Shown here piece after piece: positions 9,706 through 51,360 of a stretch of DNA of 64,000 bases; position 1 is the first letter of the stretch, and each line of letters begins with the position of its first letter. Made by a program: the position numbers and the translations under genes. Source of the DNA: Ginglymostoma cirratum (lineage: Eukaryota); the NCBI GenBank assembly GCA_024137785.1, contig JAHRHZ010000002.1, positions 10,024,358-10,088,357 on the forward strand, written 5' to 3'. Below the pieces are notes generated by a model. It ran no database searches. It was not told the origin of the DNA and was given only the letters and a program-made list of their open reading frames with translations.

Positions 9706-10601
9706 TCACTTACAAATGAAAGTAAAGGGATATTTGAGGGCACACAGCAGTTCCTGCCTGAACTTACTCTGGGTCACTGCATAAATGGCCGTGTTAATGC
9801 AGCAGCTCAGAAGCTGAAGCATAATTCCTGTCTTTTCATAAGTTTCATAAGGGCTAAATAGAGATGAGAGGATGAAGATGCTTGTAATTCGATAGTATAG
9901 GAAATATGTGACCGTTGTTATCCAGAGCAAGATAAAGCTGCCTGATATTGCAAAGAGCAAAACAATGGACTTTCTGCGATTTTTCATCTCAGGGTCCTCA
10001 TCATTTTCACCATTACGGTTGTGGACTCGGAGGTTCCTTCGTGCCTGGCTGGCCACTAAAATATATCTTACAGTGAGGATGTTCAAACATAAAATCAAGA
10101 CGAATGGAAGAATGGGAGTTAACAGCTGTTCAATCCAAGAAAATGCCATTGCTTCAGATTGAAAATAAATCACTGGTGATACAAAGCAACCCCTTGGTAT
10201 GTTGTTCACTATAACATAAGGAATGTACAAGAAGGCCCAAGGAATGTTTTTCAAAGAGAAAACCAAGGTCAGTATAATGGTCACTGCAGCAGCAGTTTTT
10301 ACTGAGCAATATTTAGATTTCAGCTTCTGGCAGCAAATGGCTACAAAACGATCAAAGGTAAAAGCAACCGTGAACCAGACAGAAATGTCGATGGCAGTCG
10401 GAGAGAGGAACAGAATAAACCTACAGACTGGAGTGTACAGCAGCAGAGAATTCCACCAATAAATTGCAGCAATCTGATGTAATGTCACATTAAAGACAAT
10501 CACCATGAAATCTGCTGTCGCCATGGCCACCAGGTAGTGAGTGATGCACTTGGAGAGACCACATTTCCCTCGACACAGGATTACAATTGCCACCAAATTA
10601 A
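9706..10601 (-). CDS. GPR139-like: GPR139/GPR142-like class A GPCR, gene A, exon 2 (model 12486-12555 + 9706-10601, 321 aa)
   Basis: Hydrophobic TM segments with YLVAMATAD (TM2), FTFDRFVAIC (TM3), FILLW (TM6), CCINTAIY..QSKFR (TM7/H8). Acceptor TTTCTCATAG, phase 1, stop TGA at 9706-9708. Confidence 0.92.
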
Positions 10602-11257
10602 CTATGAGAAATAGGAAAAAACATAGTAAGATAACAGGTTTTTAGCCAACAATAGTGTATTAACTAGCATGGCACTGACATCAAATTTTCTCTTTCTGTT
10701 CTGATCTTATCTACTGAAGGTGCAGTCATCTTGGTTGAATAAATTTATTATGACTCATTGCGGTAGCACAAAACTCTAGCCTACTGTTCCTTGAGTCTGC
10801 AGGAATTCCCCAAATTGCCTGAATTTTGATCCTGGTTGACAGAAAGCATGGACAGGGTTTCTGTCTTTATCAATAATTACTAATTACAAAAATCTAATAG
10901 AGCATATCTACAAGCACATAGTTATAAACCATAGGAACAAAATACCACTATCTAAAACTCAGACATTAGACACATGCACACATCAGAAAAAGGAAGGTTT
11001 TGGATGGAAGAACTACTGGGAAAGCAGTTCAGCAGTTTCCATTCACAAAATGATTATGATTCCTGCGTTGGGCAGAATGTTGTTTCTCAGTCACCCTTGC
11101 CTTCTGCTCCCAGTGTTATCCGAGAGGCATAGGGTTGCTGCTTCACTTACAGATGTCCTAAATTATCAAAAGTCATAACGTCTGCATGAAAAATAAACAA
11201 GTTTTCTTCAGGTCTGAAGTCGCTCACAGCACAGATGGGGCGTGGGGGTGGGGTGGT

Positions 11258-11262
<5 letters not shown>

Positions 11263-11294
<32 letters not shown>

Positions 11295-11300
11295 CAGAAA
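11263..11300. repeat. (GA)n microsatellite in gene A intron
   Basis: Read directly; a paralogous (GA)n tract lies at about 49374-49400 in the gene C intron. Confidence 0.9.
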
Positions 11301-12485
11301 CAGAGATGTCCTGGCTGATGGAGATCCAATGGCTACAGTGTAATTCTTCCTATCCCAAGCTGTTCAATGACCTACAAACAAATCTTCAATTACCTGAGAA
11401 CAAATCACATGACTGTTTGGAGGTGGAAAGTGTTTGTTCTTGGTAACGGGGCAATAGCAGTCGACAATCAATTACCAACTACATCAATTACATTTAACAA
11501 CCAAGGCTACATTTGTACACAACTTGTTGGGTCCAGTTCATCTGCAAACACTGCTGTAACCCACAGCAGTGCAAATAATGTTCATAATGAATATCAAATA
11601 GTATGCCTTCAATATATGGAACAATCCTTGGTTTTTAAGACTCTAAGACAAAAAAAATAGAAGCAGGCCATTTGGTCAATCAACTCTGCTATGTCATTCA
11701 ATGAGATTTCAGATGATCTGATAATCTTCAACTCCATATTCCTGTCTTTTCCTCATGGTCCTTGATACCAATATTATTTTCAAACTGAAGAATCACTTTG
11801 GGAATTTGAACCTATTTGTTCCTTGAACTTTTTAGTTTAAACTTCTCTAAGCAACATCAATCCATAGAAGAGGTAAAATTTGATAGCACCAAGCATAAAT
11901 CTTAGCAAGAGGCAGATAATAACTTCAGAAAGAGTTAGGAGAGCTTATTGTTAGGCTTATGAGAGCAGACTAAAAGGAAGTAGAAGAAAACAAACACAAC
12001 ATGTACAATAAATAAATAAGAGGGCAGGCAACAACAAAGATAAAAAGGAATAGGGGAGGAGAGGTGAAGTGTCTCAGATTTGAAGAAAATGTATTAGATG
12101 AGAAATCAAGATTAGAAATATCAGAAGAACAGACGAAACTAAGAGTGGAAATAAATCAGTACTATGAATAAAACTAGGTAAGGCAGTAGACAATAACGAG
12201 AGTGGAAGTGATCAAGAAAGTAGACATTACTGAACTAAAAAGCAAATAAAAGACGAGTAATGACAAATGATAATGGAATCCAACCTTGTCAACAATGTGA
12301 AGGATGTAATCTGTTCAAGAGAAGGCAACACCAGTAAAAAGAGAATGTTAGAGAGAGGACAACATGTTTTGAAAATGAAGGCAACTTCAATAATGGAGAT
12401 GTCTAAATGAGAGCAAGGCTCACAGGCTTATAGATCATTATAACACCTCTCCTGGGAATAAATTTCATCAGAATACAGTACTTGC

Positions 12486-12555
12486 CAGGCACTCCAAATC
12501 CGGCAAGGATAGGATAGTATTTGGATGTAATTGGAGACATTGGTGTTCGAAACAT
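12486..12555 (-). CDS. GPR139-like: GPR139-like gene A, exon 1 (MFRTPMSPITSKYYPILAGFGVP)
   Basis: YY..L..G.P start of TM1 as in GPR139; 70 nt, phase 1, same length as gene C exon 1; donor is G/GCAAGT (GC-AG type). Confidence 0.8.
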
Positions 12556-12630
12556 TCTCAATGTGCTGTGAAATCCTGCTGTCATAGAGACGATTGATGT
12601 AGCTTTAAGAATAAAGAAAAATGATTGAGG

Positions 12631-12655
12631 TTTATATCTAGTAAAGGGAGTCCCT
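12631..12655 (-). promoter_or_regulatory. Putative TATA box with adjacent kB-like palindrome, gene A
   Basis: TATAAA on minus strand at 12631-12636, about 76 nt upstream of the ATG and conserved in gene C; GGGAGTCCCT at 12646-12655. Confidence 0.5.
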
Positions 12656-14374
12656 ACTGATACTGCGTCCCTCAGTGAATTTGATCCAAGATGTGGAACA
12701 TACAAGATCCTAATTGCACCTGTGTTTTCCCTGTAGAAGGCGTTAAGCAAAGACACAACTTCATCTACACCTTTGGGAACAACAGCAATATGTTGAAATA
12801 ATTACGCGATATATTCAGACTTTAAGCCAAGTAAATGATGAAGATTATTTCTAAAGTTAAGCAATCAGTTGTGACTGTTGTATTTAATATCTGGAAACTT
12901 TTCTTCCATGTTCTTTATCCTTGTTGCACTTCATCTGTCTCCCCCAAGTCCAGTCCCTGTTACTATTGGCACCCTGTCGCCCCAACTTTCCCATTGTGAC
13001 AAATGGTAGCTGTCATTGGTTCCTATCCTGATTCTGCATGTTCCCATGGAATTTCTTCCTTTTCTTTATATCCTTTACGCCAGAATGATCTCTCCCTCAC
13101 ATGACATGAAAAGGGAAAAGATGGACTTACTCTGTAGGTCATAAGAATGTAAGAAACAGGTGCAGGAACAGGCCTCCAGCTAGCACTGCTAATCAACTAG
13201 ATCATGGCTGCTTTATTTTATCTCAACTCTGTGCTCCTCATTCTCCACATCTGTCTTCATTCTTTCTGAGATTAACAAAAGCTGTTTTCTCAGTCTTAAA
13301 TATATTCAATGAAAGATCACCAAACATTTTTGTAGTAAAGAATTCCAAAGTTTCACAACCCTCAAATCACTCCTCATCACAGTTCCACACTATTGACTGC
13401 ATGTTGTGAGGACAGGTCTCCATATTCCACAGCCAAAGGAATCAATCTCTGGCTGTTTGGCCTTTGAAGCATTTCCTGATGTGGTGTAGGAGGGTCTGTG
13501 CCTTTAGTTATTGAGTTGATGTGTTAACTCTGTTTACCTGCACTGTTGCTGCATGACCTGTTGAGCATTTACAGCGATATTACATTTGTTATTACAATCA
13601 GAATCTTCTGTGCCAGTGAGATCACCTAGCATTCTTAGAAACTCCAAAGTCTAAGCACAAACGTCAAAGCCCTCACAGTTGTGGTAAAGCTTCCTTGTTC
13701 TATTATTATAATCATATTCCATTGCAGGACCACATGCCACTAGACTTCCTCATAGCTGGCTGTATCTGCACACCAACATTTTCTATTCAATATCTGAGTA
13801 TACACAAGTTTCTCTAGATATTTACATTTTTGGAAAGTTTAATAAATGTTCTGCTTCTTTACGTTCTGCAGGCTAAAGTCTCTTGCACCACCTCCTCACA
13901 TTGCAGGCTGTTGTGATTCTGTTATCCATACATTTAAACATGTCTAGATATTTTTACAGCTTCTTCTTTCCTACTTATACTATATCACCAACTGTCTTGG
14001 TGACTTTAATATCACCTAAGATATGAATGTATGTTCCTATTAGCTGAGGCTTCAGCATTGATCTTCATGGCATTCCACTGGGAACAGCTGATCAAGTTGA
14101 AAGTGCATCAGTTATGCCAACTCTCTGCTTCCTCTCTGTTAAATATTCCTACAGATTGGGAGGAGTAAGCAGCAAGTCAGCATTACTGTAAAAAACTAAA
14201 CTGTGCTTTCGGTATGTTAGAATTATAGTGAAGCAGACCAGGAGGCATTTGAAGCAAGTCAGCATCGCTGCAGGAATTCAGCATTACAGTGGGTACATTG
14301 GAATGGGCTTCATTTGAATCATACTTGGACCAGTATCCTTGCCAATTATGTAATGAGAGTTATAGCTGGAACAT

Positions 14375-15645
14375 CAATTTAAGACAGATGAGAACAAATT
14401 TATTCCCTCAGCATGTTGTGAGTCTTGGGAACTTGTTTCCAGAGAGGTTGTGGGGTAGAACCCTTGTGTATATTTAAGGCTCAGATAGATCGATTCTTGA
14501 TCAGGAGGGCTATCAATGGTTATATAGAAAGGGCAGGAAAGTGGATTTGAAGAGTGCCATGTCAGCCGTTATCATATTCAATGTCAGAAAGACTTGAAGG
14601 GCTGAATGGCCTAATCCTATTTTTATTGCTTAATTGTCTTATGGCTTTATGAGAACTTATCTCAGATTCACAAAAGAGCTGAATTCCAGAAGTGAGATGA
14701 GACTGACTGTGCTTGACATCAAGACAATATTTAACTGAATGCGGCATCCAGAATCCCTCACAAAACTAGATTCAATGAGAATCAGGGGGAAGGATCTTTG
14801 CTGCATTTTACCTTGTACATAGGTAGATGATTGTGAATTTTGCACGTCAGTGATCACAGCTCCAGAACACCTCTGAGGAGTTCCTCAGGGTGTTGTCCTA
14901 GGCTGCTTAATCAATGGCCTCCCCCATCATAAGGTCAGAATTGGCGATGGTTACTGACGATTGTACAATTTTCAGCACCACTCACATTTCCTCAGATATT
15001 AAAGCTGTCCATGTTAAATTGCAACAAGATCTGGACACTATCAAAGCTTAGGCTGACAAGTGGAAAGTGACATTCATGCTACACATATGCCAAACAGTAA
15101 CAATCTCCAGTGAGAGATAAATTAACCACCACCTCTTGATATTCAGTGATATTACCACCACTGAATCCTCCTCCCTGCAGGTTGCCTTTGACCAGAAACT
15201 CAACTGGACTTGCAACATAAACATAGTGTCCACAGGAGCAGGTCAGTAGCTAGGAATACTGCAGCAATTGCTCACCTCCTGACTCCAAAAAACTTGTGCA
15301 TCATCTCCAAGACCCGAGTCATGAATGTGATGGAATACTCCTCACTTGCCTGCATATATACAGCTCCAACAACACTGAAGAAGCTTGACACCATCCAGGA
15401 TAAAGCAGCCCCTGCTTGATTGGCACCACATCCACAAACATCCACTCCCTCCACCACTCACAGCAGTGTGTATTTTCTTCAAGATGCGCTGTAAAAATTC
15501 GCCAAAGATCCTGAGATAGCACCTTCCAAACCCATGACCACTTCCATCTGGAAGGACAAGGGCAGCAGATGCACGGGAACACCACCACTTGCAACTTGTC
15601 ATCCAAGTCAACCACCATCCTGACTTGTAAATATATCGCCGTCAT
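14375..15645 (+). mobile_element. CR1 3' tail fused to a second CR1-like LINE 3' fragment
   Basis: RT remnants (GVPQG-like; MEYSSLAC..LKKLDTIQDKAA). Confidence 0.7.
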
Positions 15646-16899
15646 ATAACATTTTGCTCTCCAGATTTCCTACCTCTTCATTCATTACAACAATTTTTCT
15701 GTCTGTGTGTGTCTGCAAGGGTGTGTAGGGTTTTCATTTTAGAAAGCAGTTAAAGCTTTAACTACAGAGTTATAGGTCCAGAGTTCACATTCGTGGCCCT
15801 AAAGTTACCATCTATTTATCTGTAATGAAGAATAATTTTTGATAAATGTCGAAACGTAGCCCATGTTTTCTGTTAATCCGAGTCTACCAGACTGGTAAAT
15901 TGAGGATATTTGATGCTTTGACATTTTTTAAAAAAGTTTTTGTGACAACTAGGTAACAGTGGAGCCTGATTTGCAGTGTGTTACTCGAATGAGGCAATAA
16001 CAAAGAGAGTTCTTTGTCTTCTTCTTGCGCTTCCCAGCTCTTCCCCTGTCGTCCCTTCCCCAGTTGCGCGGTGACTTGGGCTGGACTCAATTAGTTGGAC
16101 AAATGGTTGGCGATTCAGAATGTGTTCTGCTCCCTCACCGACTGACGGATTCTCCTTGTCAACCTTTCCCTTTAAAATGTGAGGCATGCCGACCCTCGGT
16201 TGAAATCGTCACCTGACTCTGTTTAGTGAGAGAGCTGCCTCAAGGTACCGCTACAGCAACTTTTACTGTCACTCCTTCAAGCTGCATCTGAAGCCCAGGT
16301 CTGAAAAGGAAGAAACTTGAGAACAAAATAGGCCTAAACGTTAACATTTAGTGGAAATATTGTAGGTGTCTGATTCTGGTCAATTTCTTACAGTTCCCAT
16401 GTTGCTAGCTCTCGGTCTGGTTTGACACCGTTTAAATGCATTTTTGCTACTTGTCAACTCAAATTACTTACCTCTCGCCAAAATATTTATAGAACAGCAT
16501 CTGCAAGAGCATCTGCTCACTAAGGTTAAGAAGTTATACTCGGCAGCAGCAAAGCCGATCGACATTGACAAAGCTTCGGCGTCCCAGTGGAACGTGTGAA
16601 AACTGAGGTGAAGCGACTACGTGCTATCTGACAGCTGAACCTGCAGTGCAGCAGGCAACCTGTCAACACCTCCGGTGCAGAACGGCCGCATTGTGCTCCT
16701 TGTCTCAACTGTACACACCATGCAGTTCCGGCTCCAGGGAGTTACAGCGAGGCGGAGGAACTAAAGGAAATTAAGAGTGGGATGGTACATAAGCGGAATT
16801 GTAGGAGAAACTCAGCAAGTCTGGCTGCATCTGTTCAGCGAAAGCAAGATGACTGTTTTGAAGAATGATCTCTTCACAATCTGGGTAGGTATTAGTTAA

Positions 16900-16950
16900 G
16901 TGTATAGATGGATAGATAGGTAGATACATACATACATACATACATACATA
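16900..16950. repeat. (TAGA)/(TACA)n microsatellite
   Basis: Read directly. Confidence 0.85.
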
Positions 16951-17889
16951 ACAAGGTGTGGAGCTGGATGAACGCAGCAGGCCAAGCAGCATCATAGGAG
17001 CAGGAAAGCTGACGTTTCGGGCCTAGACCCTTCAGATAGATACATAGATATGTGGGCATCCACATGATGGAACTGGTTCTTCAAAGTAAGCTGCGTTTAT
17101 TAGAAACTTGCAGGTACGATAAACAGAAAAATGAACTTTTTGACGAATTTTGTGGAACCCATCTATGTTATTAATCGATGTCTCAATGTTCCCCATCTCC
17201 GGTAATGATTTGTATGCAAGTGGCACAAGACTCCTCTGCTCTCGTACTCGCTTTAGGATTGCACTTTTACTTTTTACGTGGCCGCCTCATTCCTTCTGCC
17301 TAAGTGAATCAATTCACATTCCTCTGCATTAATCCTATTTGAACTCTTGCATCTGCCACCAGTTCTTCTGTCCCACTCTCTACGTAATTGCGAAGTGTAT
17401 CGCTCTCCCGCTCACCTTTCACAATCGTTCTGATAGATTGGCTGAAAGGAAATATTCGTGAATTCTTTCACTAATTGACTGAGGAAGGGTCACCTACCTG
17501 AAATGTTAACTCTGATTTTTCTTCACAGAAGCTGCCAAACCTGCTGAGCTTTTCCAGCAACTCCTGTCTTTGTTCCTCATTTACAGCTTCCGCAGTTCTT
17601 TCGGTTTTTTTTATTGGCTTTGTCTAATTCTGTTCTTTTCTTTCAGCGCATTGTTAAATCTTGCTGAACTAAGTTTTCAGCATTTGTCTAAGGACTGATA
17701 GTTGCGCTAGCTTGCCTTTAGATCACTACTCTCTCTCTCTCTCTCTCTGCCTCCTTTCCTGGACAGCTCTGTTTCATTTGGTAACGTCCAATTCGACTGA
17801 AGCAGGTCCAAACGAATTTTGCAAATTGATCACCAGCCTTGCTCCACAACCCCTCCAGCTCACTCTGTCCGTTCGCGGGGATCGAGTAG

Positions 17890-18360
17890 TGGGGTTTCGT
17901 GGGATTTCGTTTTTTGTTTCAGTTTCTCGGGAACATTTTCCTTGCTGATATCGCGAGGAGAGTGTCCCGTGCCCGAAGGAATGCAGCTTGCCGTGAAAAC
18001 AGCGTTTGCAAGTCAGTCAGCGAGAGAGAGCGCGAGTGTCATTATCCGGCCTTAAATATCACCTCGTGCGCGCACAGATAGGAAAATCCATTGGGTGTTG
18101 ATATGCGATGTGGGATCTCCCGTGCTTTTACATTTCGTGCACTCTGCCGGGTATGTTGGAGGCTCAGGCGGGTGGGTTGTCCATGCTTACAGCCTAAAAT
18201 CAGGCTATTCGGCCCATTTCGATATGCACCGCCCCTGCAGCAACAAACACCTCAGGGTTTTCTGAGAAACTCTGGAAATGAATACGCTTCAAGGACATGT
18301 TGGAAACAAAATTATTTTCAAATCTGAAAGTCCCGTGCTTTCCGTGAGTGTTCCCGAAAG
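17890..18360. promoter_or_regulatory. CpG-rich putative immune enhancer/promoter (ISRE, kB, GAS motifs)
   Basis: GTTTCAGTTTC at 17916-17926, TTC-N4-GAA at 17924-17933, GGGATCTCCC at 18112-18121, TTCTGAGAA at 18260-18268. Motif matches only. Confidence 0.4.
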
Positions 18361-18725
18361 TATCAACACTCTGAGTGAAATAATACCTCCTCGTTGTTTT
18401 CTCCATTAATTAGCTCCCAGATCTCTGGCTCTCCCGTTACATGGAACCGCTGTTCCGTGGTCTCTCTGAGTCAGTGTTTTTTTTTAGTTAGATCATCTTT
18501 ATGTTCCTACCCTTCACCTTCCCTGGTCTACAGAGGACAAGCCCAGCATTTCCAATCTCTCCACACAACAGAACATTTCAATCGCTGCTATCATTCTGGC
18601 AAAGTTCCTATGAATTGTCCCGGAGGCTGAGATATCCTCCTAAAATTTTCCTTCTCAGTTAGAAAGGACGCCCTAGCCAGGGCCCAAACAGTGTTGTGTA
18701 AAAAGGTTATGCTATTATACCTGGA

Positions 18726-18853
18726 TAACAAGCGTGGGGCTGGATGAACACAGCAGGTCAAGCAGCATCATAGGAGCAGGAAAACTAGACGTTTCGGGCC
18801 TAGATGACGCTTGTTATCTCGGATTCTCCAGAATCTGCAGTGCCTTTTATCTC
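18726..18853. mobile_element. Penelope-like terminal repeat insertion with 16-bp TSD
   Basis: TGCTATTATACCTGGA duplicated at 18710-18725 and 18854-18869. Confidence 0.75.
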
Positions 18854-20689
18854 TGCTATTATACCTGGACTGTCAATCCAGAAACCCGGGTAATGTTCTG
18901 GGGACCTGGGTTCTAATTCTGCCAGTGTAGATGGTAGAATTTGAATCCAATGGCGAAAGTGGAAATAAGAATCTAATGATGACCATGAATCTGTTGTCAA
19001 TTGTCGGAACCAACCCAATTGGTTCACCAATGTCCTTTAGGAAACTAAACTGCCAATTCAAACTGGTCTGGCCTACATGTGACTCCAAGCCCGCAGCAAT
19101 GGGGTGAACTTTGCGAATGTCCTCGGAGCAAATAGGGATGGACAATCAATTCTGGCCTAGCCAGCGACGCCCTTATCCTGTGAATGAATAATAAACAAAA
19201 AATCAGAAATAGGATTCGGTCATTCAGCCCCTCCATTCAGCTTCACTATTCTTTCAGATCATGGCTGATACAACACTCCTCTGTCGACTTTCTTGCCCTT
19301 TCCCCGAAATCTTTCATTCCACAACTGCTCAGGAATCTGTCTGTCCCAGCCTTAAATACACACAAGACAGGTGACACCTTTTCTTCAAAGCTTGGGCACT
19401 CAGTTATAAAAAAAAAACGAGAATGTCACACACTTTCTCAATTGCCTTATGAACTTGCCTTGCTGCTTCCAAAACAAATGGTAGTTTGCAACCCAAAGGA
19501 GCAGTGCCACCTGTACAATCATGAAAAGGTCAATCATTCAGATCATAAGAACTGGTAACAGGCCATACAGCCTCTCCAGGACAAACAACCATTCAACGTG
19601 AGCATGGTTGATCTCATGTGGGCCTCAACTTTACTTTCCTGCCCGCTCCCCGTAACCCCAGTGACATTACCCTTCACGTAGCCCAAGCCAAAGCTCAGTA
19701 CTGTCCCTGTCCTAGATTGCATCTGCCCTGAGCCTGCCCATTTCACCAGTCTGACCCTGTTGTACTGAAGTCAGTTACATCATCTTCTTGATTGTGTGGA
19801 AAGTGGCACAGAGACAATGTCACTGAACTGGTCAAACAAGAGGACAATAGGACAGGTTTCAAAAGCCTAGCACGTCGTGGAATTTGAATGAGCAAACGTG
19901 GGGTATAAAACTCATGTCAGTGATGGTGACTGCGAAAACTATTGTTTACAATCGCCTCACGAGTGAGAGTCAGTCTTAGTTGGGACTGCAGAGCCGCCCC
20001 TTTATGGTTCATGCTCGACTGCCTGCTGAATGGCCTAAGAACCCAGTCAAGCTGCAGGGCCATTAAGTTTGGGCCACACATGCTGACCTTGTCAGCAGAG
20101 CGTCCATCTCACAAGGAAAACAAGGACCAGTCTGCAACGAGTTTTCCACAGATTCCGAAATTGCACGCTCCGTAGCCAAGTCCGGGTAATTTGTACGCAA
20201 CAAGGAACCTGGTGGTCCTTCTACCAGCATCTGGGAGACATTACTGCACTATTCTCACCAGGAGAGAAGAAGGTAAAACACCGAGGCATCTTTACGTTTC
20301 ATCTTCTGGTCCTCAACAGTCTACATGCAGGATAGTGATCTATTCTAAGTGAGTGCATCTGTACCACGAAGCGTCCTTGTAAAAACGGATTATATCATAC
20401 AATCACATAGGGGATGTCTTTAAGAGCAGCTGGACAGTGTGGGGTATGAAGTGCTTTATTACCTTGTCCAACTTTATTTTGATTCAATCCACATCGTCCC
20501 CCCTCACATTTGTCACGTAAACATTGCCCTTATCAGGCTTTGCTTGTTAATGGTTCACTGACCATGCGGGTGTTTTTCCTGGTGGTGCAAGTGTAGGAAA
20601 AAAGTATCTGTACAATGGTGTCTTTTTACTGAGTGACTGCATCTACAAAGACAATCACGGCTTGCTGTGGTAGCTTAGGGGTAAAAAAA

Positions 20690-21500
20690 AGAATCATACA
20701 GGACAGAAGTAACCGTTTGGAGCATGAAGTCTATATATATAAATATACACTAATGCCTACATTCGCCCATTTTCCCGCACTAGGCCCGAAGCCTTGAATG
20801 TTAGGACACTTCATTTGCTGATCCGAGTACTTTTTAAAGGTTACAGGATCCCCGTCTCAACTACCCTCCCAGGCAGTGCATTCAAGACAGCACGTACCTC
20901 CCCCTCATCCCACATCACACTCTGGGTGAAAAGACTTTTCCTCAAATCCACCCCCTCCCCAACCCTCAGTCCTTTCATTTTAAAAGTGTACCTTCTTGTG
21001 ATTGAACCTTCAACTATAGGGTACAGCTGTCTTCTATTCACCCTGACCATACCCCTCACAATCTAATACACTTCCACCAGGCCGCACCATCATCCCTAAC
21101 ACCCCCCCCCCCCCCCGCTAACTGTCTCTGCTCTGAAGAAAATAATCTGAATTTACCGAGTCTCTCTGCAGAACTGAAGTGCTTCAACCAACAGAGCATC
21201 TTGGTCAATCCACTCTGCACCTCCTTCCAGTGCCATCACCTCTCTCCTGCAGTGCGCTGACTAGATCTGCACGCACTACTCCAGCTGTGGTCAAACCAAA
21301 GTTCTGTACAGTTCCAACATGACCTCGCTGATGTTATAGTCTGCGCCTTAACTGGTAAAGGCAAGTGCCCTGTGTGTCTTCTGAACTCCCCAATGTCCCT
21401 CTCCTTCCACCTTCACGGAAATTTAGACAAGATCCCCAAGATCACTCTGTCTTTTTAGCTTCTTAGAGACTTACTATTGATTGCATACTCCCATCACTTG
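20690..21500 (-). mobile_element. Old CR1 3' fragment
   Basis: Minus ORF remnant MRGMVRVNRRQLYP..EGSITRRYTFK..SLFTQSV, a CR1 ORF2 C-terminus. Confidence 0.7.
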
Positions 21501-21592
21501 TTCCATGACCTTTGTGCGTGTTTGTGTGCGACACAAGTTGTGCACTATTTGCGTGTGAGAGAAGAAAAAATTACCTAAACCGCTTCTGATGT

Positions 21593-21636
21593 TTCCTTCC
21601 TGTCTGTTTCCACTCCCCCATATCCGGAAACCGAAC
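21593..21636 (+). promoter_or_regulatory. ETS and ETS-IRF-like sites in TATA-less proximal promoter of the NKp30-like gene
   Basis: TTCCTTCCTG and CCGGAAACCGAAC about 85-125 nt upstream of the ATG; motif match only. Confidence 0.3.
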
Positions 21637-21718
21637 TCAAGTTCATTGGTCCGTTGAATGACACAAATATTCTAATCCTTACGCTACCTTCATTATCAAT
21701 CAACCAGCTGTAGGGACA

Positions 21719-21761
21719 ATGCACTGGATTTCAGTTACCTGGATCACCGCTGTAATCTCAG
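21719..21761 (+). CDS. NCR3-like: NKp30/NCR3-like receptor, exon 1 (leader MHWISVTWITAVIS)
   Basis: ACAATG start, hydrophobic leader, strong donor CAG/GTAAGC, phase 1 in frame with the V exon. Confidence 0.75.
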
Positions 21762-22099
21762 GTAAGCAGGTTTAGGCATGAGTTAACATCAGGCTTGCAC
21801 TGGCATGCATGATGTATTCTCAAATTGTTGCCTTTTCGGGTTAGGGCATCTTAACATCTCAGCACAGTGGCAATGCTGTCTGAGCAACACAGACCCATCT
21901 CCAAATGGAAGCTCACTGAGACAGTTGCCATACAGAGGTTGATGCTTCACAGTTCCTTATGGTGAATTTATGTTTACCCGGGGAAGGAAAGTACAGTGTC
22001 GACATTGGAAATGGTAGGAGTGACAACAAGATAAATCAAAAAGCATTGGGTAGGATGAGGAGAGATTTTAGGATAGTACCTACAAACGTATTCAGAATA

Positions 22100-22490
22100 C
22101 GACTGAGAAAAAGATATAGATACGTAGATAGATAGATAGACAGACAGACACATGCAAGACGTATGGACAAATGCACAAACAGACAAATGAACACATTAAT
22201 AGCCCGATCGATAGAAAGGTAGACAAACGGGCAGATAGACAGACACATGGAGGGAGAGACAGACAGCTAGTTGGATGTTTACATCAATAGGTACACATAA
22301 ACAGAAAGATTGTTAAATAGGTAGTTCAATAGACAGATTTATACTCACAGATAGAAAAAAAAGATCGACAGCAGACACATGGAACGATAGTCAAACAGCC
22401 AGATAAGTAAAAGAAAGAAAAATATAGGTAGATAGTTGGGTGGATGGATAGATAGGTAGATAGATAGAACGAGATAAATAGATCGAAATA
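22100..22490. repeat. Degenerate (GATA/GACA)n tract in intron 1
   Basis: Read directly. Confidence 0.8.
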
Positions 22491-23565
22491 TGAGTCGGAT
22501 CGAAATGAGTCAGAAAGACAAAGAAGAAATGGATACTAATTAGGGGCAAATCAATAGAAATAGATCCTCTCTCACATAGCGTTTTGTTGCGTTACGGGAT
22601 GCATTTTGATTTCAGGGCATTTTGCCATTTGTCTCTGCCTCATGACGCGGTGGATACACGTTTAAAAACAGCATTCAAAATGAAATCGGCAAAATCATTA
22701 AAAGATATACAGGTACTTTGATATAACGAAAGAAAGCAGCGTGTGAGCTAATTATTCTCTGATAGAGACAGTGCAGTCTCCCTGGAATGAACAGCCTCTA
22801 TGTCTGCCGTAGAATTCCAGAATTCTTTCCATGCAACATTTTACAAATATTCCTTATCCCTGAGAATGACTTGCAGGGCTGGCTGGATCGAACCAAACAA
22901 TTGTTTTCGAATCTTTTTGTCTAACCCCCGAATAATTGTAGCAATTTAAGGGAATACAGAGAAACATACATAATTGGAGCAGGAGTAGGCTTGCTCCACC
23001 ACTCATTGTGATAATGGCAGATTATCCAACTCAGTAGCCTGCTCCCGCTATATCCCTGTGGTTTCACTTCTCTTAGACCCAAGAGTGTATCCAACTCCTT
23101 CTTGAAAACAGCCAATGTTTGGGCCTCGACTGCTTTCTGTGGCAGAGAATTCCACAGTTTCCCCACTCTCTTGGTGAAAACATTTCTCCTCATCTCAATC
23201 GTAAATGGATTATCCCATATTCTTGCATTTAGACCCTGGGATCTGGCCTCGAGAGCAATCGGGAATATCCTCCCTGCATTTACTGTACCTGTCTAGTCTC
23301 TTTTCTATGAGATCGCTCCACCACCTCTTAGTTCTAAGCTCCAGTGGATATGACCCTAATACAACCTTTTTCTAGTTCTTAATTTGAGGTAATATCTGTG
23401 CAGCTGTCTCCTACGTATGAAACATTTCTTTGATCAGCAGTTTAAGGAATTTGATAAACAGCGCTTAAAGAGGTAATGATAGGCATTTTAGATTTTTACA
23501 CTATAGCTGTGTAAGAACAGATAGACCACAGCGTTTGTGCAGGAACACAGGAATAGGAGTAGGCC

Positions 23566-23663
23566 ACAAAAACAAAGTTGCTGGAAAAGCTCAGCAGGTT
23601 TGGCAGCATCTGTGGAGGAGAAAACAGAGTTAACGTTTCGGGTCCGGTGACCCTTCCTTAGAA
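23566..23663 (-). mobile_element. Penelope-like terminal repeat fragment
   Basis: AAAAACAAAGTTGCTGGAAAAGCTCAGCAGG family, also found at the end of the Penelope element at 54670-54810. Confidence 0.75.
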
Positions 23664-23806
23664 CACCGGACCATAACGTAGAGCAAATGATAGGTCTTGA
23701 ATGTGCCATGATAAACATAATTTGGATTAAAACTGGAATTAAATGACATGCTTTAAGAAAAAAAGATTGGATGCAGTTTTATGACGTTTGTCTTACCCAT
23801 TTACAG

Positions 23807-24148
23807 CAGGTGCTGTTGGAAATATCACAGTTATTCAGAGCCCGAACTCTCTCACCAAAACGCCGGGCCAGACAGCGCGCCTGGGCTGTACGTATCAGGG
23901 ACCCAGTGGTATCGGCAGCTACGCGTGGCACCGGGGGAGCAAGCGGGGAAATGAAGTCTCCAACAACACAGAGGAGTTCGGAGGCCGCGTATTCGCGGCA
24001 AGCCAAGAGGATTTCAGGGACAGGAGAGATGCCTCGATCAGAATCGTTAATCTGAAACCAGAGGACACCGGGTTCTATACCTGCGAAGTGGTTTTCCTGG
24101 GGATGCGGGAAGCCTATGGAACAGGGACCACACTGATAGTGACACGGG
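23807..24148 (+). CDS. NCR3-like: NKp30/NCR3-like receptor, exon 2 (germline-joined VJ Ig domain)
   Basis: V-set Cys/Trp/Cys, DTGFYTC, J-like YGTGTTLIV. IGSYAWHR..GNEVSNNTEEFGGRV..CEVVFLG resembles human NKp30 IGSVTWFR..GKEVRNGTPEFRGRL..CRVEVLG (from memory). Phase 1/1; donor G/GTAAGT. Confidence 0.92.
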
Positions 24149-25225
24149 GTAAGTGCGGGGCAGCTGAGTTATTCCTAGCGAAACAATATGGACTTAATCA
24201 TGGACGATCATTCCAGTAATGTGTTTCTTTTCGGCTTTAGGCAAACTATACACTATTAACCCAAACTGTGATCTCTACCGTAACATCAACGTCAGGTACC
24301 CCTCCAATTACTATATTATCCAGGCTTGGAATGATTATTAGCTCGCAGTACCTGCCTCAAAATCCTGTTACGCCCTCCCTAACAAGCACTGTAAGTGTGT
24401 AAGAACAGACAGACCACAGTGTTTATACAGGAACACAGGAACAAGGAGTCGGCTATTCCAACTGTTCGAACCTGTCCCACTGTTTAATGACATTATAGCT
24501 GATCTGTAAACTAACTTCGTGTATTTGCCTTTGGTATTTAATCTTTGCTTAACAAAAAAAAAACTCCCTCAGATTAAAATTAACAACAGATTTAGCATCC
24601 ACTGCAGTTTTGTGTGGAGAGCTCCAAATATCTACCACCCTTTGTATGTAGAGGCGCTTCCTAATACCTCTCTTGAAAGGTCTGGCCCTAATTCTCAGAC
24701 TATGCCCCTTAGTTCCAGAAACCTCATTCAGTGTAAATAGTTTTAATCAAGTGGCTTATCATCTTCAGAAAGAAGCCGCTTTTAAGATTCACAATGAATA
24801 TTAAACATCTTAGCGGTGGTTGAATTTCCCAGTAGAAATGATTGGTATTATTAAAATTGGATTGCATACAGTTTGGGCAATCCCTTAACAAGTAATCGGT
24901 CATTGGGTGCCAGTGGGGAATTGGAATGCTAATGAGGACAACAGTTGGGACTTGCTATTTCAGCTGGTGAAATGACACCCGGTAACCAATGGCCCGAAAC
25001 TGGTAGCAGCGTCTTAACGTTCCTGAATTCACATCCTGATCGTGCCGCTTAAAGACTAGGATTCTCTCCAGTTGTCCGTTGCGTTCTCAATCGATGACTA
25101 AGTTTGATCAAGGCCAATGAAAAATATTCGTCAAGAGCTGCACACCATACAGAATTGAAACCTTGCGTGCTATTCACTGATCATCATTCTACCCTTGGCT
25201 GTTCTTTCTGTAGACTTTCTCACAG

Positions 25226-25354
25226 ATAATGACGGGAGCAGCACAGCTGAGTCCAAGTCAAATACCTCTCCATTTGTCTTTGCAATGGCGGCGGAGTTGT
25301 CTCTCCTGTTCATCATGGTGGTTATAATCATTGTCATGCGCTGCCAAAAGACCG
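25226..25354 (+). CDS. NCR3-like: NKp30-like receptor, stalk and transmembrane exon
   Basis: Acceptor TTTCTCACAG; DNDGSSTAESKSNTSP-FVFAMAAELSLLFIMVVIIIVM-RCQKT; donor G/GTAACA; 129 nt, phase 1/1. Confidence 0.85.
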
Positions 25355-25389
25355 GTAACAATCCGAATTCGTGTGCCTGTGAGTATCAT

Positions 25390-25985
25390 AGTCATATCAT
25401 CATACAGCACAGAAACAGGCCCTTAATTCCACTCGTCTATGTCGACCAGCTTTTCCACACTAAACTAATCTTATTTGCGTGCTTTTGGCCCATATCCCTT
25501 GAAGCGTTTGCTATTCATATCCCTGTCCAAATGTCTTTCCAGTGTTGTAACTGCAGCACTTCTGCTGGCAGTTCACTCCATATGCGCATCACCCTCTTTG
25601 TTTAAAACGATGCCCCTGCGGTCCCGCTTAACGGTTTCTCCTCTCATTTTAAACCTATGCCCTCTGGTTTTGAACGCCCCTACTATAGGGAAAGTACCTT
25701 TTTAGTATCCTTGCCCCAGCAGACGAGAACTGTATGCAATTCTCTAAAGGTGTCCTGTACAGTCACAACATGACATCCCAACTCCCATACTCAATGCACT
25801 GACCGATGAAGTCAAGCATGCCAAATGCCTTCATTACCTCCCTGTCTACCTGCGATCCCACTTTCAAGGAAGTATCTGCTTGAATCACTCGGGGTCTCTG
25901 TTCCACAACACTCCCCAAGGCCCTACCATTAACTACGTATGTCCTGCCCTGGCGTGTCTTAACAGGATGCAACATCTCACTGTCG
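25390..25985 (-). mobile_element. CR1 3' fragment in intron
   Basis: Minus ORF remnant NGRALGSVVEQR..KAFGMLDFIGQCIEY and CR1 tail. Confidence 0.75.
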
Positions 25986-26267
25986 ATGTATGAACGATGC
26001 TAACTTTGCAAGTTTTAACCTGTAAGTCGGCCAGGTTGAGTTGGAACGCTGGCTATAAACTCCCCGAGTCCGCTCACCAATTTGCTTTGAATTGAGAGTA
26101 GTATTGTGGTTCTTGGTGAGTGAAAACAGCGCAGCCTCCCTCACATTGGGCTGTTTCTCAAGGAGGGATTTCAGTCAACTTGGACGATACATTATTTCAT
26201 TAAGGAGTAAACTTAATTATGGGCTCAGAAATTTAATAATTCTGTTACTACTTTCCTTTCTCCACAG

Positions 26268-26289
26268 CCACTCCCGAGCAACCCGAAAG
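26268..26289 (+). CDS. NCR3-like: NKp30-like receptor, cytoplasmic micro-exon (ATPEQPE)
   Basis: Strong pyrimidine tract CTTTCCTTTCTCCACAG; donor AAG/GTAACT; 22 nt, phase 1/2. Confidence 0.7.
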
Positions 26290-26400
26290 GTAACTGGCTG
26301 CATAGAATCTGTTATTTGATATCCGATCTGGTATTTCCCTTGTTGTCTGTGTTTTCTTCAACATCTAACTTCCCTGCTGTCCATTTTATTTTTGCTACAG

Positions 26401-26435
26401 GCCAGTTCCCCTGTACGCAGAGATCCATAAGGGAG
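26401..26435 (+). CDS. NCR3-like: NKp30-like receptor, cytoplasmic exon (RPVPLYAEIHKG)
   Basis: Acceptor TTTTTGCTACAG; donor GAG/GTGAGT; 35 nt, phase 2/1; carries a YAEI tyrosine motif. Confidence 0.78.
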
Positions 26436-26927
26436 GTGAGTAACACAGAGAAATATGCATAATATCTTTTTTTTAAAAAAACGAACTACTACTGGGTTCA
26501 ATGGAATGAATTTGACTTCTCCTTGATGGGGTGGTTAATTGTATTTTTTGACAGTTATAATCTGAAAATCTGTCAGAAACTAGGGCATAAAGATTAACGA
26601 TGATTTAGAGAAAGCCAAGGGGTCATATAGATTTTCTCTCTTAACTCAGCGAATCACTGTTATCTGGAATACATTGACTGATGGGAAGACAGATGAAATA
26701 CGATAAGAGAAATTTTCGTGGAGAAATGGATATTTCAAAGGAGGCGAGTTGCAGGATTCATTGGAAAAAAAGTAGCAAATTGGACCTGATTGGCAACATT
26801 TATATATATATATGCTGTTATCAATGTTGCATCCTATAATATTAAGGTGCCGGTACTGTATTTTAATGTATAACCCTAAGAGAAGTGTACTGAATTAGAC
26901 GATATTAATTGCTTCTCTGTTGCCTAG

Positions 26928-26968
26928 AGACCAGCTGTGTCCGCTCTGAAAGCAGAAGAACCAACCAG
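26928..26968 (+). CDS. NCR3-like: NKp30-like receptor, cytoplasmic exon (ETSCVRSESRRTNQ)
   Basis: Acceptor CTTCTCTGTTGCCTAG; donor CAG/GTACGT; 41 nt, phase 1/0. Confidence 0.7.
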
Positions 26969-28428: not shown

Positions 28429-28635
28429 GACGATGACGGGATTCAATACACCGCGATCAATGCGCAGGAGGAAAGTCGATGTGTGCTCCCGGTGAATGAG
28501 CAGACAGTGACCTATGCTGCAGTGAAGAAAACGAGGCAGAAGCGATTCAGCGATGTGAAGCACCGCGAGAGGGTGATAGAGGAAGCTATCCCCCCACCTC
28601 TCCCACCCACCACCACCCAGGGATCTCGCCTTTAA
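28429..28635 (+). CDS. NCR3-like: NKp30-like receptor, terminal exon with two ITIMs
   Basis: Acceptor CTTTAACCTCAATAG, phase 0: DDDG-IQYTAI-NAQEESRCVLPVNEQT-VTYAAV-KKTRQKRFSDVKHRERVIEEAIPPPLPPTTTQGSRL-stop. Total model is 819 nt, 272 aa. Confidence 0.82.
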   Translation, partial: DDDGIQYTAINAQEESRCVLPVNEQTVTYAAVKKTRQKRFSDVKHRERVIEEAIPPPLPPTTTQGSRL

Positions 28636-28864: not shown

Positions 28865-28870
28865 AATAAA
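28865..28870 (+). terminator. Candidate polyadenylation signal of the NKp30-like gene
   Basis: AATAAA 230 nt after the stop; a second one at 28998-29003. Confidence 0.4.
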
Positions 28871-34857: not shown

Positions 34858-35774
34858 TTAGTTGTTCACATTTGCTTTATTAGTCAATTGAATAATGAAT
34901 GAAAATGGATAATGCACTGCATTTTTCAACTGCTGTCTGAATCTGGACTGAGTCACCCCATAAATAAATGCATTTGTACAACAATTTATTTCCGCCAGCA
35001 TAACTCCTACATGTTGGAAAATGTATAAAGATTCATTGTAGTTCTGTGGATTAACTCCAGCAATGTTATAATATAAGAAGTTTAGAACATATAAAAACCA
35101 CAGGAGTATGAAACTGCCAGATATGGTGAAGAGTAAAATCATAGACTTTCTCCTGCTTTCCATTTCTGGGTCAGGGTGATCTTCTGTCTTTTTCTGATTC
35201 ATCAGTCTCTTACGGACTTGACTTGTCCCTAATATATATCTGACTGTGAAAGCATTTAATAATAAAATTAAAACAAATGGGGTCGATGGGGTTAAAACCC
35301 TATCAAACCAACTAAATGCTACCCAACCAGGATCACTATAATAGCTTGGCTTTGCATTACAAAACCAGGGAACATTTTCAATTTCTTTTACAGATTTGTA
35401 TACAAAGTAAAAAGGCAAGTTTTTAAAACAGAACAAAATCCATGTTGTTCCTAGAACTACAATCACAGTTTTCTTGGTGCAGTATTTTATTTTTAGCTTT
35501 TGATGACAAATGGCCACAAAACGGTCAAAGGAGAATGCGATGGTGAAACAGACAGAACAGTCTCTATATATATGAAACAGGACAATGAGGCCACGACATA
35601 CAGGTGTAATGCTCAAAAATGATCCTGGAAAGTAATACAAGCTGATCCGTAAGAGTATGAACTCAAGGATAATGAACTGTAGATCTGCTGTTGCCATGCT
35701 CACAAGGTAGCAAGTGGTACAGGTGGAAAGGCCACATTTTCCGCGGGATAAGATCAAAATTGCCACTAAATTAG
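34858..35774 (-). CDS. GPR139-like: GPR139/GPR142-like GPCR, gene B, exon 2 (model 37522-37585 + 34858-35774, 326 aa)
   Basis: YLVSMATAD, FSFDRFVAIC, FILLW, NCCTNAFIY..QSRFR; acceptor TTTCTCTTGTTTACAG, phase 1. Confidence 0.92.
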
Positions 35775-37521: not shown

Positions 37522-37585
37522 CAGGAACGCCAATGATGGAAAGAGCCATGTAGTACATTTTCCTGAAACTGTTAAATGTTTCCAT
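37522..37585 (-). CDS. GPR139-like: GPR139-like gene B, exon 1 (METFNSFRKMYYMALSIIGVP)
   Basis: Good Kozak context ACCATGG, YY...G.P TM1 start, donor G/GTAAGT, 64 nt, phase 1. Not in the ORF track. Confidence 0.88.
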
Positions 37586-37644: not shown

Positions 37645-37699
37645 TTTATATGGAGTGGAAATCTCCGTGGGGACTTTGATGTTGTAACATCATGCAAAT
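37645..37699 (-). promoter_or_regulatory. Gene B core promoter: TATA, two kB-like sites, palindrome and octamer
   Basis: TATAAA at 37645-37650; GGAAATCTCC and GGGGACTTTG at about 37657-37678; TGATGTT-gt-AACATCA at 37677-37692; ATGCAAAT at 37692-37699. Confidence 0.55.
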
Positions 37700-40730: not shown

Positions 40731-40732
40731 GG

Positions 40733-47731: not shown

Positions 47732-48645
47732 TTATTGTAGCACATTTCCCCATTGAGCACACTTACAAATGAGAGTGAAGGGATATTTGAGGGCACGCAG
47801 CAGCTCCTGTCTGAACTTACTCTGGGTCACTGCATAAGTGGCTGTGTTAGTGCAGCAGCTCAGAAGCTGAAGCATAATTCCTATATTTTCGTAAATTTCA
47901 TAAGGGCTAAGTAGAGATGTGAGAAGAAAAAAATATGTAATTCTATAATACAGGAAATAAGTGACAGTTGTGATCCAGAGCAGGATAAAGCTGCTGGATA
48001 TTGCAAACAGTAAAATGATGGACCTTTTACGATTCTTCATCTCAGGGTCTTTGTCATTGCTCCTGTGGACACGAAGGTTCATCCGGGCCTGACTGGCCAC
48101 TAAAATATATCTGACAGTGAGGATGTTCAAAAACAAAATCAAGAAGAATGGAAGAATGGGAGTTAACAGCTGTTCAATCCAAGAAAATGCCATTGCTGCA
48201 GGTTGAAAATGAACCACTGGTGATACAAAGCAACCCCGTGGTATGGTGTTCACTCGCTCATAGGGAATGTATAAGAAGGCCCAGGGAATGTTCTTTAAAC
48301 AGAAGAACAAGCTCATTGTAATTGTCACCACAAAGGCAGTTTTCACTGTGCAATATTTTGATATTGTCTTGTGACAGCAAATGGCTACAAAACGATCAAA
48401 GGTAAAGGCGACTGTGAACCAAACAGAAATGTCGATGGCAGTCGAAGACAGGAACAAAATTACTCCACAAACAGAAGTGTACAGCAGCAGGGAGTCCCAC
48501 CAATAAATCATAGCAATCCGATGTAACGTCACGTTAAAGACAGCCACCATGAAATCTGCTATTGCCATGGCCACCAGGTAGTGAGTGATACATTTGGAGA
48601 GATCGCATTTCCCCTGACTCAGGACCACAATCGCAACCAGGTTCA
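47732..48645 (-). CDS. GPR139-like: GPR139/GPR142-like GPCR, gene C, exon 2 (model 51291-51360 + 47732-48645, 327 aa)
   Basis: Close paralog of gene A; FTFDRFVAIC, FILLW, CCTNTATY; acceptor TTTGTCACAG, phase 1. Confidence 0.92.
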
Positions 48646-50115
48646 CTGTGACAAATAGAAAAGAAAACAGTTACGTAAGAGGCTGGAGTGACCGATAATG
48701 AGTAAAATGCCATGGCATTGTCATTTTATTTTCTCTGTGTTCTGATCTTCTCTGCTGCAGGTGCTAGTCATCTTGGTAGAATGAATTTGTCATGACTTAC
48801 TGGGGTAGTGCTAAAACCACTTCCTGAAGTCTTTATAAATTTTATAAGGTCCACAAAGATTCCTCAATTTATGCAATCTCTGGACCTAGGTTGACAGAAA
48901 GCGCAGACAATTTTTAACAATAATTATTATACAGTCGAAATAAATAGAACCTAGCTCATAGGAAATAGTTGTAAACCATTGGCAGATAATACTACTCACT
49001 AAAACTCTAACTTCATCATAATTTCCCTTACAGACATGCACACACACACACACATGTGCACACAACCCCCTCCCCTCCCAATGCACATGCAGACTCCGAC
49101 AAAAAAGGATTCAAGATGGAGGGAGAACCAGGAAAGCAACTCAAAGGTTTCTGTTCACGAGGGTTTGTGGAATGATCCTGATCATTCTGATGCTTGTCAG
49201 AATTCTGCATCTTAATCATTCTTTTCTATTGCTTTCACTGTTCTGAAAAAGGCACGATGTAGCTGGTCTATTTCCAAAATTGTCGCCAAATTATCAATTG
49301 AAATTTAGACCAACTTCTGAATGAAAAATAAACTGCTTTTTATCAAGTTTACAGTGGCTAACTTCACAGAATGGAGAGAGAGAGAGAGAGAGAAAGAGAG
49401 TGTGCTCCTGGCTGGTGAAGAGCAAAAGGCTTCACTGGATCTTATTCCCATCTCTAAACTGTTCAGTAACCTGAGAAAATAATCACAGGCCTGTTTTCAG
49501 ACAGAAGACATTTGTCGTTGTGCATCTGTCAGTAATCCGCAATCTAATCTGCTATTTTACCAATCAAAGCTCCATTCATATGCAACCCTTTGGCTCCAGT
49601 TCACCTGCAAACACTGCTGCAACTGGCAGCTACACAAATAGTACACACAATGAATATCAAATTATTCACTTTCCATACACGTGGAAATTCATGGTTATTA
49701 GAGCCCTAAGACAAAGTAAGAGTATCTATTTGGTCAATCTAGTCAGCTTGGCATTCAATCAGGACACAGCTGATCTGATCACCTTCAATTTCGTGTTCCA
49801 GTTTGTTCCTCATGGGCCTTGATGTCCGCAGTCTTTTCAAATTGAAGAATCACATTGGGCATCTGGACCAATTTTGTTTTTGAGCCTTTAGGTTATCTTT
49901 CTCTAACCAACAACAATCCGGTAGCAGAGGTAAAATTGAACAGCACTGAGCATAAATCTGACCAGGAGAGAGACAACACTCGCAGAAGGAGTTAGTAAAG
50001 CTCTATTATTAGGCTTATGAGTGCGTGGTTAAAAGCAGAAGAAAATTTTAAAAATTGGTATAATAAGTAAAATAAGAATGAAAGCAACAACCAAATTAAA
50101 AGGAGTAAGAGAGGA

Positions 50116-50858
50116 ACATAGAACATAGAACAAATTACAGCGCAGTACAGGCCCTTCGGCCCTCGCTGTTGCGCCGACCTGTGAAACCAATCTGAAGCCC
50201 ATCTAACCTACACTATTCCATTATCATTCATATGTTTATCCAATGACCATTTAAATGCCCTTAAAGTTGGCGAGTCTACAACTGCTGCAGGCAAGGTATT
50301 CCATGCCCTTACTACTCTCTGAGTAAAGAATCTATCTCTGACATCTGTCCTATATCTATCACCCCTCAATTTAAAGCTGTGTCCCCTCGTGCTAGCCGTC
50401 ACCATCCAAGGAAAAAAGCCTCTCACAGTCCACCCTATCCAATCCTCTGATCATCTTGTATGACTCTAGTAAGTCACCTCTTAACCTCTTCTCTCTAACG
50501 AAAACAGCCTCAAGTCCCTCAGCCTTTGCTCATAAGACCTTCCCTCCATACCAGGCAACATCCTGGTAAATCTCCTCTGCACCCTTTCCAATGCTTCCAC
50601 ATCCTTCCTATAATGTGGTGACCAGAACTGTACACAATACTCCAAGTGCGGCTACACCAGAGTTTTGTACAGCTGCAACATGACCTCACGGCTCCGAAAC
50701 TCAATCCCTCTGCCAATAAAACCTAACACACCGTACACCTTCTTAACAACCCTATCAACCTGGGTGGCAACTTTCAGGGATCGATGCACATGGACACCGA
50801 GATCTCTCTGCTCGTCCACACTACCAAGAATCTTACCATTAGCCCAGTACTCTATATT
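50116..50858 (-). mobile_element. Young 5'-truncated CR1 insertion in gene C intron
   Basis: Well-preserved CR1 3' end (TRGHSFKLRGDRYRTDVRDRFFTQRVVRAWN) with microsatellite-type tail; absent at the paralogous site in gene A (about 12060). Confidence 0.9.
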
Positions 50859-51290
50859 GCTGATTCCAGGAGAGGTGAGATGCCTCAGATAAGTGTATTA
50901 GAGAAGAAATTAAGATTAGAGCTGTCAGACGACAGACAAACTAATAGCAAAACTATGCAAGAGTAGTAAATAAGACAGTATCAAGATTCAAAGTGAGTTA
51001 GAAATTAGACAATACCGTGAGTGAGATTGATCAAGAGAGGTGACATAACTGAGATTTAAAGAGAATAGAAAAGGAGTAATGACTGATGATAAGCGAATGT
51101 GATCTTGTTTGCAATATGATGAATTTAATATATTGAGAGAAGGCAACACCAATAAAAAGAAATTATAAGATAGAAGACAAGATGTTCTGAAAGTGAAATC
51201 AATTTCAATAATGTGAGAGCAATGCTCACAGATTTAGAAATCAATACAATGCCACTATTAGAACAAATTTCACAAGTATATTATACTTAC

Positions 51291-51360
51291 CAGGCACTCC
51301 AACTCCAGCAAGGACAGGATAGTATATGGATGCAATCAGAGACATTTCTGTCCAAAGCAT
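51291..51360 (-). CDS. GPR139-like: GPR139-like gene C, exon 1 (MLWTEMSLIASIYYPVLAGVGVP)
   Basis: 70 nt, phase 1, donor G/GTAAGT; TATAAA at 51440-51445. Confidence 0.88.

Follow-up and report, generated by a model that had tools for sequence, protein, structure and literature searches.

GPR139, represented by the structures 7VUG and 9M42, and GPR142 are class A receptors that respond to L-Trp and L-Phe, and are related to the receptors considered here. The residues of the GPR139 ligand site have been mapped (F3x33, H5x43, W6x48 and N7x38; PMC5430874), and the protostome receptors for MIP, proctolin, FMRFamide and myosuppressin are placed as the sister group of GPR139/142 (PMC8557429). The known vertebrate olfactory receptors belong to the OR, TAAR, V1R/ORA and V2R/OlfC families, and cartilaginous fishes are reported to carry a mean of 43.8 olfactory receptor genes (PMC10869828). 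The present analysis concerns a stretch of 64,000 nucleotides from the nurse shark Ginglymostoma cirratum (assembly GCA_024137785.1, contig JAHRHZ010000002.1, positions 10,024,358 to 10,088,357; hereafter the window), which contains three receptor genes, A, B and C. These represent a family of class A G protein-coupled receptors (GPCRs) that is real, large and distinct from GPR139, and that likely functions in chemosensing. The sequences establish how its genes are built, how large and widespread it is and that it is separate from GPR139/142; they also show that the inner G-protein face is conserved, that the predicted pocket varies and that many promoters have a common layout. From these features, we consider it on balance probable that the family is a chemosensory repertoire of sharks and rays, most likely of their olfactory neurons.

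Genes A, B and C and the extent of their family

All three are two-exon class A GPCR genes, with lengths given below in amino acids (aa) and TM denoting a transmembrane helix:

9706..10601, minus strand: gene A exon 2, open frame from the second half of TM1 to the stop codon, 7tm_1 E 4.5e-14
12486..12555, minus strand: gene A exon 1, 23 aa, phase 1, GC donor; alternative starts at 12540 and 12585
34858..35774, minus strand: gene B exon 2, open frame, 7tm_1 E 3.9e-26
37522..37585, minus strand: gene B exon 1, 21 aa, phase 1, GT donor
47732..48645, minus strand: gene C exon 2, open frame, 7tm_1 E 1.8e-12
51291..51360, minus strand: gene C exon 1, 23 aa, phase 1, GT donor; alternative start at 51345

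Their frames are uninterrupted once spliced, yielding proteins of 321 aa (A, 12555-9706), 326 aa (B, 37585-34858) and 327 aa (C, 51360-47732) across introns of 1884, 1747 and 2645 nt, respectively; the start codons are inferred, with three in-frame candidates for A and two for C. The original prediction of three intact same-strand receptors of two subtypes agrees with these structures, A and C being close (81% identity) and B divergent (48% to A, 45% to C). Two further features that it described, a phase-1 intron directly after G-V-P in TM1 and a short N-terminus without an N-glycosylation sequon, are likewise found in each gene, exon 1 encoding 21-23 sequon-free residues. The proteins are class A (rhodopsin-like) GPCRs: 7tm_1 is their sole significant Pfam match (E 4e-26 to 2e-12), and the family has the seven-helix fold, N1.50, D2.50, R3.50 and N7.49/Y7.53. 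An alignment-based model of gene A exon 2 predicts seven helices (mean predicted local distance difference test score, pLDDT, 87), and in a fold comparison this model is matched first by the GPR139 structure 7VUG (TM score 0.72), marginally ahead of peptide receptors. DRF replaces DRY in 3/3 proteins, and NPxxY is replaced by N-T-x-x-Y in A and C and by N-A-x-x-Y in B, as had been described. Neither DRF nor the missing proline is peculiar to the family: the orphan receptor L110, introduced below, has ERF, and GPR139 and GPR142 also lack that proline.

Gene A has a GC splice donor (GC-AG intron, 12486-12480, minus strand), where its duplicate, gene D, has GT, and no RNA read spanning this donor was seen in sequencing run X1. 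Since a zebra-shark protein 95% identical to A has its exons joined at the same junction, gene A is probably intact despite the GC donor.

The genome examined comprises 4.36 Gb in 289 contigs. Searches with B and A returned 1391 and 1334 first-look candidates, respectively, counts that do not equal copy numbers; all of those scored were strong matches (129/129 for B at E <1e-82, on at least 39 contigs; 132/132 for A at E <1e-75). Internal stops occur in three of the 132 best matches to A, a sample biased towards intact copies. An exact pattern from the DRF region matches the genome 283 times (control 0), and is present in 35 of the 67 protein-found members on contigs for which the pattern list is complete. 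The resulting overlap estimate is ~540 loci (range 440-710), obtained with a single pattern from a sample in which intact genes are over-represented. When upstream DNA was taken for 60 further loci, exon 1 was recovered in 29 family genes; together with A, B and C, 32/32 have the phase-1 TM1 intron, and an N-terminal sequon is present in 0/32 at the shortest plausible start and in 2/32 at a longer one.

The family extends through sharks and rays. Of the 1792 matching sequences in the protein database, the best 120 include 119 named elasmobranch proteins; these come from 15 species, and 115 carry an automatic GPR139 name, with records in RefSeq. Nine of ten divergent family representatives looked up are also elasmobranch. 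No holocephalan member occurs in the match lists examined, which came from no search aimed at absence. The subfamily of A and C contains skate and ray proteins, and thus predates the shark-ray split. The pattern matches, the locus estimate and the breadth of relatives bear out the lineage-wide expansion originally proposed; copies are clearly not few genome-wide, the outcome named beforehand as speaking against it.

Position relative to GPR139, GPR142 and two orphan receptors

One GPR139 (C23) and one GPR142 (C82) were found in this genome as separate genes; they are 55% identical to each other and have 17-23% identity to A, B and C. In quick trees, supported by the Shimodaira-Hasegawa-like approximate likelihood ratio test (SH-aLRT) only, with no approximately unbiased (AU) test, the family is recovered at 100, GPR139 and GPR142 form their own branch at 99, and the family is joined with two single-copy GPR139-like orphans, L109 and L110, at 93 and 98. 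A close kinship with GPR139 had been proposed, and is not upheld given the separate branch, the nearer position of L109/L110 and the low identity; A, B and C are ruled out as orthologues or direct duplicates of GPR139/GPR142 by these trees together with the loss of residues of the site for tryptophan and phenylalanine. Of the four mapped residues of this site, W6.48 alone persists, in 97% of 73 paralogues, and the other three vary. Because of the separate branch and the loss of most of the site, aromatic amino-acid sensing is not transferable to the family, and an origin of the family from GPR139 itself is rejected.

At a broader level, the family belongs by its sequence to the wider GPR139/142 clade, with which it has in common the phase-1 TM1 intron and its best PDB sequence match (E 1e-8). 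The intron had been described as occupying the same position in GPR139, correctly so: the exon-2 acceptor falls at the same codon in GPR139 and GPR142 of this genome, the comparison being with these nurse-shark orthologues and not with human GPR139. W6.48 and the missing NPxxY proline are further points of likeness. In contrast, F3.33, the TM5 histidine, N7.39 and R6.51 are not kept in the family, which also lacks P6.50 and has a cysteine pair between TM3 and the second extracellular loop (ECL2) that is absent in GPR139/142.

The two orphans, besides their SH-aLRT grouping with the family, have its intron and cysteine pair. L109 (G000:C39:24439124-24439978) is 29% identical to GPR139, and L110 (G000:C271:10602749-10603630) is 26-29% identical to A, B and C. 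Orthologues of L110 are present in sharks, coelacanth, sturgeon, teleosts, amphibians and reptiles, with none from birds or mammals among the 120 matches listed; two of the orthologue records are mis-named TMEM183A. L110 differs from the family in having conserved orthologues, a conserved pocket and no TATA-linked promoter element. L109 and L110 may correspond to GPR210A/B (Rinne et al. 2019; PMC6504862; accessions not mapped). A salamander receptor (P0351, P0405) also groups with the shark family, at 98 in a quick tree and on a long branch; given this grouping, the lineage may be older than the split from bony fishes, with the salamander member a possible tetrapod relic.

Predicted pocket and promoter architecture

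Among 73 paralogues, mean entropy is 2.02 bits in the predicted pocket compared to 1.03 at the 94 positions of the inner half (p 1.5e-6). The corresponding values among 115 L110 orthologues are 0.74 for the pocket, 1.07 for other outer positions and 0.90 for the inner half. The predicted pocket is thus variable among paralogues and not in L110 orthologues, in line with the original view of these proteins as a small-molecule or peptide sensing repertoire.

The ratio of non-synonymous to synonymous substitution rates (dN/dS) in 11 independent close pairs is 0.33 overall, 0.72 in ECL2 and 0.60 in ECL1, and the codon-model omega across the 73 sequences is 0.245 for pocket, 0.285 for outer and 0.204 for inner positions; these are partition averages, not site-model values. 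Positive selection at the pocket in recent pairs is rejected (dN/dS 0.28): the dN/dS check proposed at the outset returned purifying selection there. A, C and D have 1-3 non-synonymous pocket changes among them. Pocket diversity looks old and maintained now, with no sign of an ongoing arms race at these positions. Because the differences look old and are now conserved within subfamilies, A, C and D probably have the same ligand and B a different one.

A TATA box lies 46-100 nt before the start in 22/32 promoters of the family, two of which, near-duplicates of A, were dropped to leave a TATA-aligned set of 20. This set has a peak at -22 to -13 with an information content of 5.27, compared to a maximum of 2.95 in 500 rotations. 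The element is claimed from this motif-free rotation test, which was preferred because motif variants were picked after the data were seen. By eye, the peak consensus equals the Ebf probe from the OMP promoter at 9/10 bases (Monahan 2017; PMC5608512, supplement 7), and a homeodomain core stands at -29 in 5/20 promoters. OR promoters are reported to be enriched in Lhx2 and Ebf sites, including a mouse Lhx2/Ebf composite (PMC5608512). The family element is described as EBF/O-E-like, its putative binding factor being named from the consensus. When scored leave-one-out with the TATA columns included, 16/20 promoters lie above the random 95th percentile; that of gene B reaches 18.3 against a percentile of 7.8, and its core promoter is predicted as follows:

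37645..37673, minus strand: predicted core promoter of gene B, TATA from 37650, EBF/O-E-like site at ~37673-37662

Four of 12 held-out promoters score 13-17. The TATA-linked layout is absent from the promoters of L110 and the NCR3 gene of the window, which served as negative controls; exon 1 of GPR139 was not found within 20 kb. V2R-type promoters of this genome (19 of 20 fetched) have an element score of 8.2 versus 5.3 for random sequence (p 0.004), and a full TATA-linked layout common to V2R promoters is rejected, the best scores being at most 8.7. In the V2R-type clusters L127-L146 (G000:C17, C288, C4), several promoters have EBF-like sites ~120-130 nt before the start codon. A strict EBF palindrome is likewise rejected (0/25 promoters), and consensus sites for ETS, RUNX, NF-kB, IRF and GATA show no enrichment in 25 promoters.

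These features suggest how an olfactory repertoire of this kind could work. EBF (Olf-1/O-E) would bind the TATA-linked site, in some cases next to a homeodomain factor like Lhx2, and would activate single genes in sensory neurons scattered among others. The transmembrane pocket of each subfamily would accept its own water-borne small molecule or short peptide, and signalling would pass via Go or Gq and TRPC2, a route proposed on account of the Go and TRPC2 present in catshark olfactory neurons (PMC10116579). In this putative mode of action, the family resembles OR, TAAR, V1R/ORA and V2R/OlfC in being large and clustered, with compact genes, a variable pocket, and candidate EBF-like and homeodomain promoter sites. 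However, it belongs to none of these by sequence (OR consensus E 9e-4), its nearest solved relative is GPR139, and its genes have a coding intron. It is quite possible, if short of probable, that the genes add a fifth family to the vertebrate olfactory receptors, one roughly tenfold larger than the known shark and ray olfactory repertoire, and that it arose from an orphan branch of the GPR139 clade under EBF/homeodomain control. Expansions elsewhere are independent of this one: the protostome peptide receptors are ~27% identical to the shark family, and clusters bearing srw, a nematode receptor type with a chemosensory role, occur among the Atlas look-alikes.

The NCR3-type neighbour and competing explanations

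The receptor array is broken up by an immune gene, which lies between A and B, head-to-head with A, and has been duplicated together with it:

21719..28635, plus strand: NKp30/NCR3-family immunoglobulin receptor, not a receptor-family member; 7 exons, 284 aa, V-set, tail resembling an immunoreceptor tyrosine-based inhibitory motif (ITIM)
9600..31500, no strand: duplicated cassette of gene A and the NCR3 gene, ~22 kb, collinear blocks 68-83% identical

Human NKp30 is an activating receptor. It is the best PDB match of the encoded protein (E 1.9e-11), which has 89% identity to a deposited shark NCR3. The window protein looks inhibitory because it combines its ITIM-like tail with the lack of a basic transmembrane residue. 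Splice joints from exon 2 onward were observed in run X1, which also contains an in-frame form skipping the transmembrane exon (contig depth 30.5 versus 34); such a form would be soluble or intracellular. The second cassette copy lies 56-60 kb downstream, beyond the window, and consists of a second NCR3 gene and gene D, a fourth receptor member 86% identical to A and located ~1.8 kb beyond the end of the window. This contig (10.05-11.0 Mb and 19.3 Mb) carries all 12 of the NCR3-like V exons found, which adjoin the receptor array and include one with a stop codon. From 20 kb ahead of the window to 30 kb beyond it, no broken receptor copies were found, and gene death therefore cannot be seen at this locus. 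Other features of the window are runs of N (30594-30993, 400 N; 43315-43324, 10 N) and decayed retroelement fragments (38641-39378, plus strand; 53131-54200 and 60846-61463, minus strand), which include an RVT_1 match.

Run X1 is RNA, as its spliced NCR3 joints and exact matches indicate, from a tissue not on record. For gene A, it contains one 426-nt exon 2 contig at depth 4.2 with no splice joint, compared to non-coding contigs at depth 3-9; being unspliced and within the non-coding range, this contig counts neither for nor against expression. Runs X2 and X3 hold mostly repeat matches. Section 11 of one study lists no GPCR in the top 50 olfactory-library genes (PMC11979771), a result that sparse expression would also produce. 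No family matches occur in the readable supplements of PMC10529500 and PMC13188829, and GPR139 is not mentioned in the text of PMC12227049, bioRxiv 2022.10.17.512540, PMC10751288 or PMC11979771. No description of the receptor family came up in a literature search whose scope left out subscription journals and some supplements.

Several observations weigh against an olfactory repertoire. The 35 pocket positions were assigned by generic helix numbering rather than taken from a ligand-bound structure, and their excess in entropy over other outer positions is weak (2.02 versus 1.70 bits, p 0.07); in the close pairs, pocket dN/dS (0.28, range 0.19-0.39) is near that of the inner half (0.23). A and C, whose promoters score -1.7 and 2.3, show no fit to the TATA-linked element and have weaker sites further upstream, and the homeodomain core of the family lies one base further from the EBF-like site than it does in one mouse composite probe. 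Only 3/19 V2R-type promoters, from related genes, exceed the control 90th percentile. Catshark olfactory neurons have already been explained as V2R-type (PMC10116579). Finally, an NCR3 immune gene is interleaved with the receptors and was duplicated together with A, and an EBF-like site alone cannot tell nose from lymphocyte, since EBF1 is also a B-cell factor.

A rival explanation is an immune repertoire, in which leukocyte receptors would recognize microbial or damage-derived peptides and metabolites, as in the mammalian FPR and MRGPR expansions. The head-to-head NCR3 gene, the location of 12/12 V exons on this contig, the fast ECL2 and ECL1 and the activity of EBF sites in B cells all accord with this explanation. 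We nevertheless regard it as unlikely, because the receptors occupy at least 39 contigs compared to one for the NCR3-like exons found, there is no enrichment of myeloid or lymphoid consensus sites, the family element is missing from the NCR3 promoter, and selection on the pocket is purifying in recent pairs, contrary to what an arms race would give. As for the original alternative of a sensory or an immune repertoire, the promoters lean towards the former, with the NCR3 neighbour keeping the latter in play.

Chemosensing outside the nose, in taste buds, solitary chemosensory cells of skin and gill, or gut endocrine cells, would draw on the same size and pocket evidence as an olfactory role, and GPR142 provides a precedent as an amino-acid sensor. 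It would also suit the few known taste receptor genes of cartilaginous fishes (mean 4.1; PMC10869828) and the proposal that the clade ancestor bound aromatic residues (PMC8557429). However, the homeodomain and EBF-like promoter layout points to olfactory neurons and the Trp/Phe site is not kept, leaving this alternative somewhat less likely again than an immune one. Least probable of all is a largely non-adaptive expansion, with copies accumulating in duplication-prone regions, redundant for one endogenous ligand or decaying. It would account for the cassette duplication that took an unrelated NCR3 gene along, and for the lack of positive selection at the pocket, but is at odds with the overall dN/dS of 0.33, the scarcity of internal stops in a sample biased to intact copies, an A/C subfamily older than the shark-ray split, and pockets that are conserved inside each subfamily but different from one subfamily to the next.

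An olfactory repertoire would have consequences for how the senses of sharks and rays are understood. Cartilaginous fishes combine large olfactory organs with ~44 known olfactory receptor genes, a combination that has been interpreted as sensitivity traded for discrimination (PMC10869828, PMC10116579). As surveys are restricted to the four known families, several hundred receptors auto-named 'probable GPR139' would lie outside their reach. Were the family immune instead, the oldest lineage with adaptive immunity would possess a very large leukocyte receptor family that is so far unstudied. Expression in the nose would overturn the sensitivity-for-discrimination reading and would constitute a new origin of vertebrate olfactory receptors.

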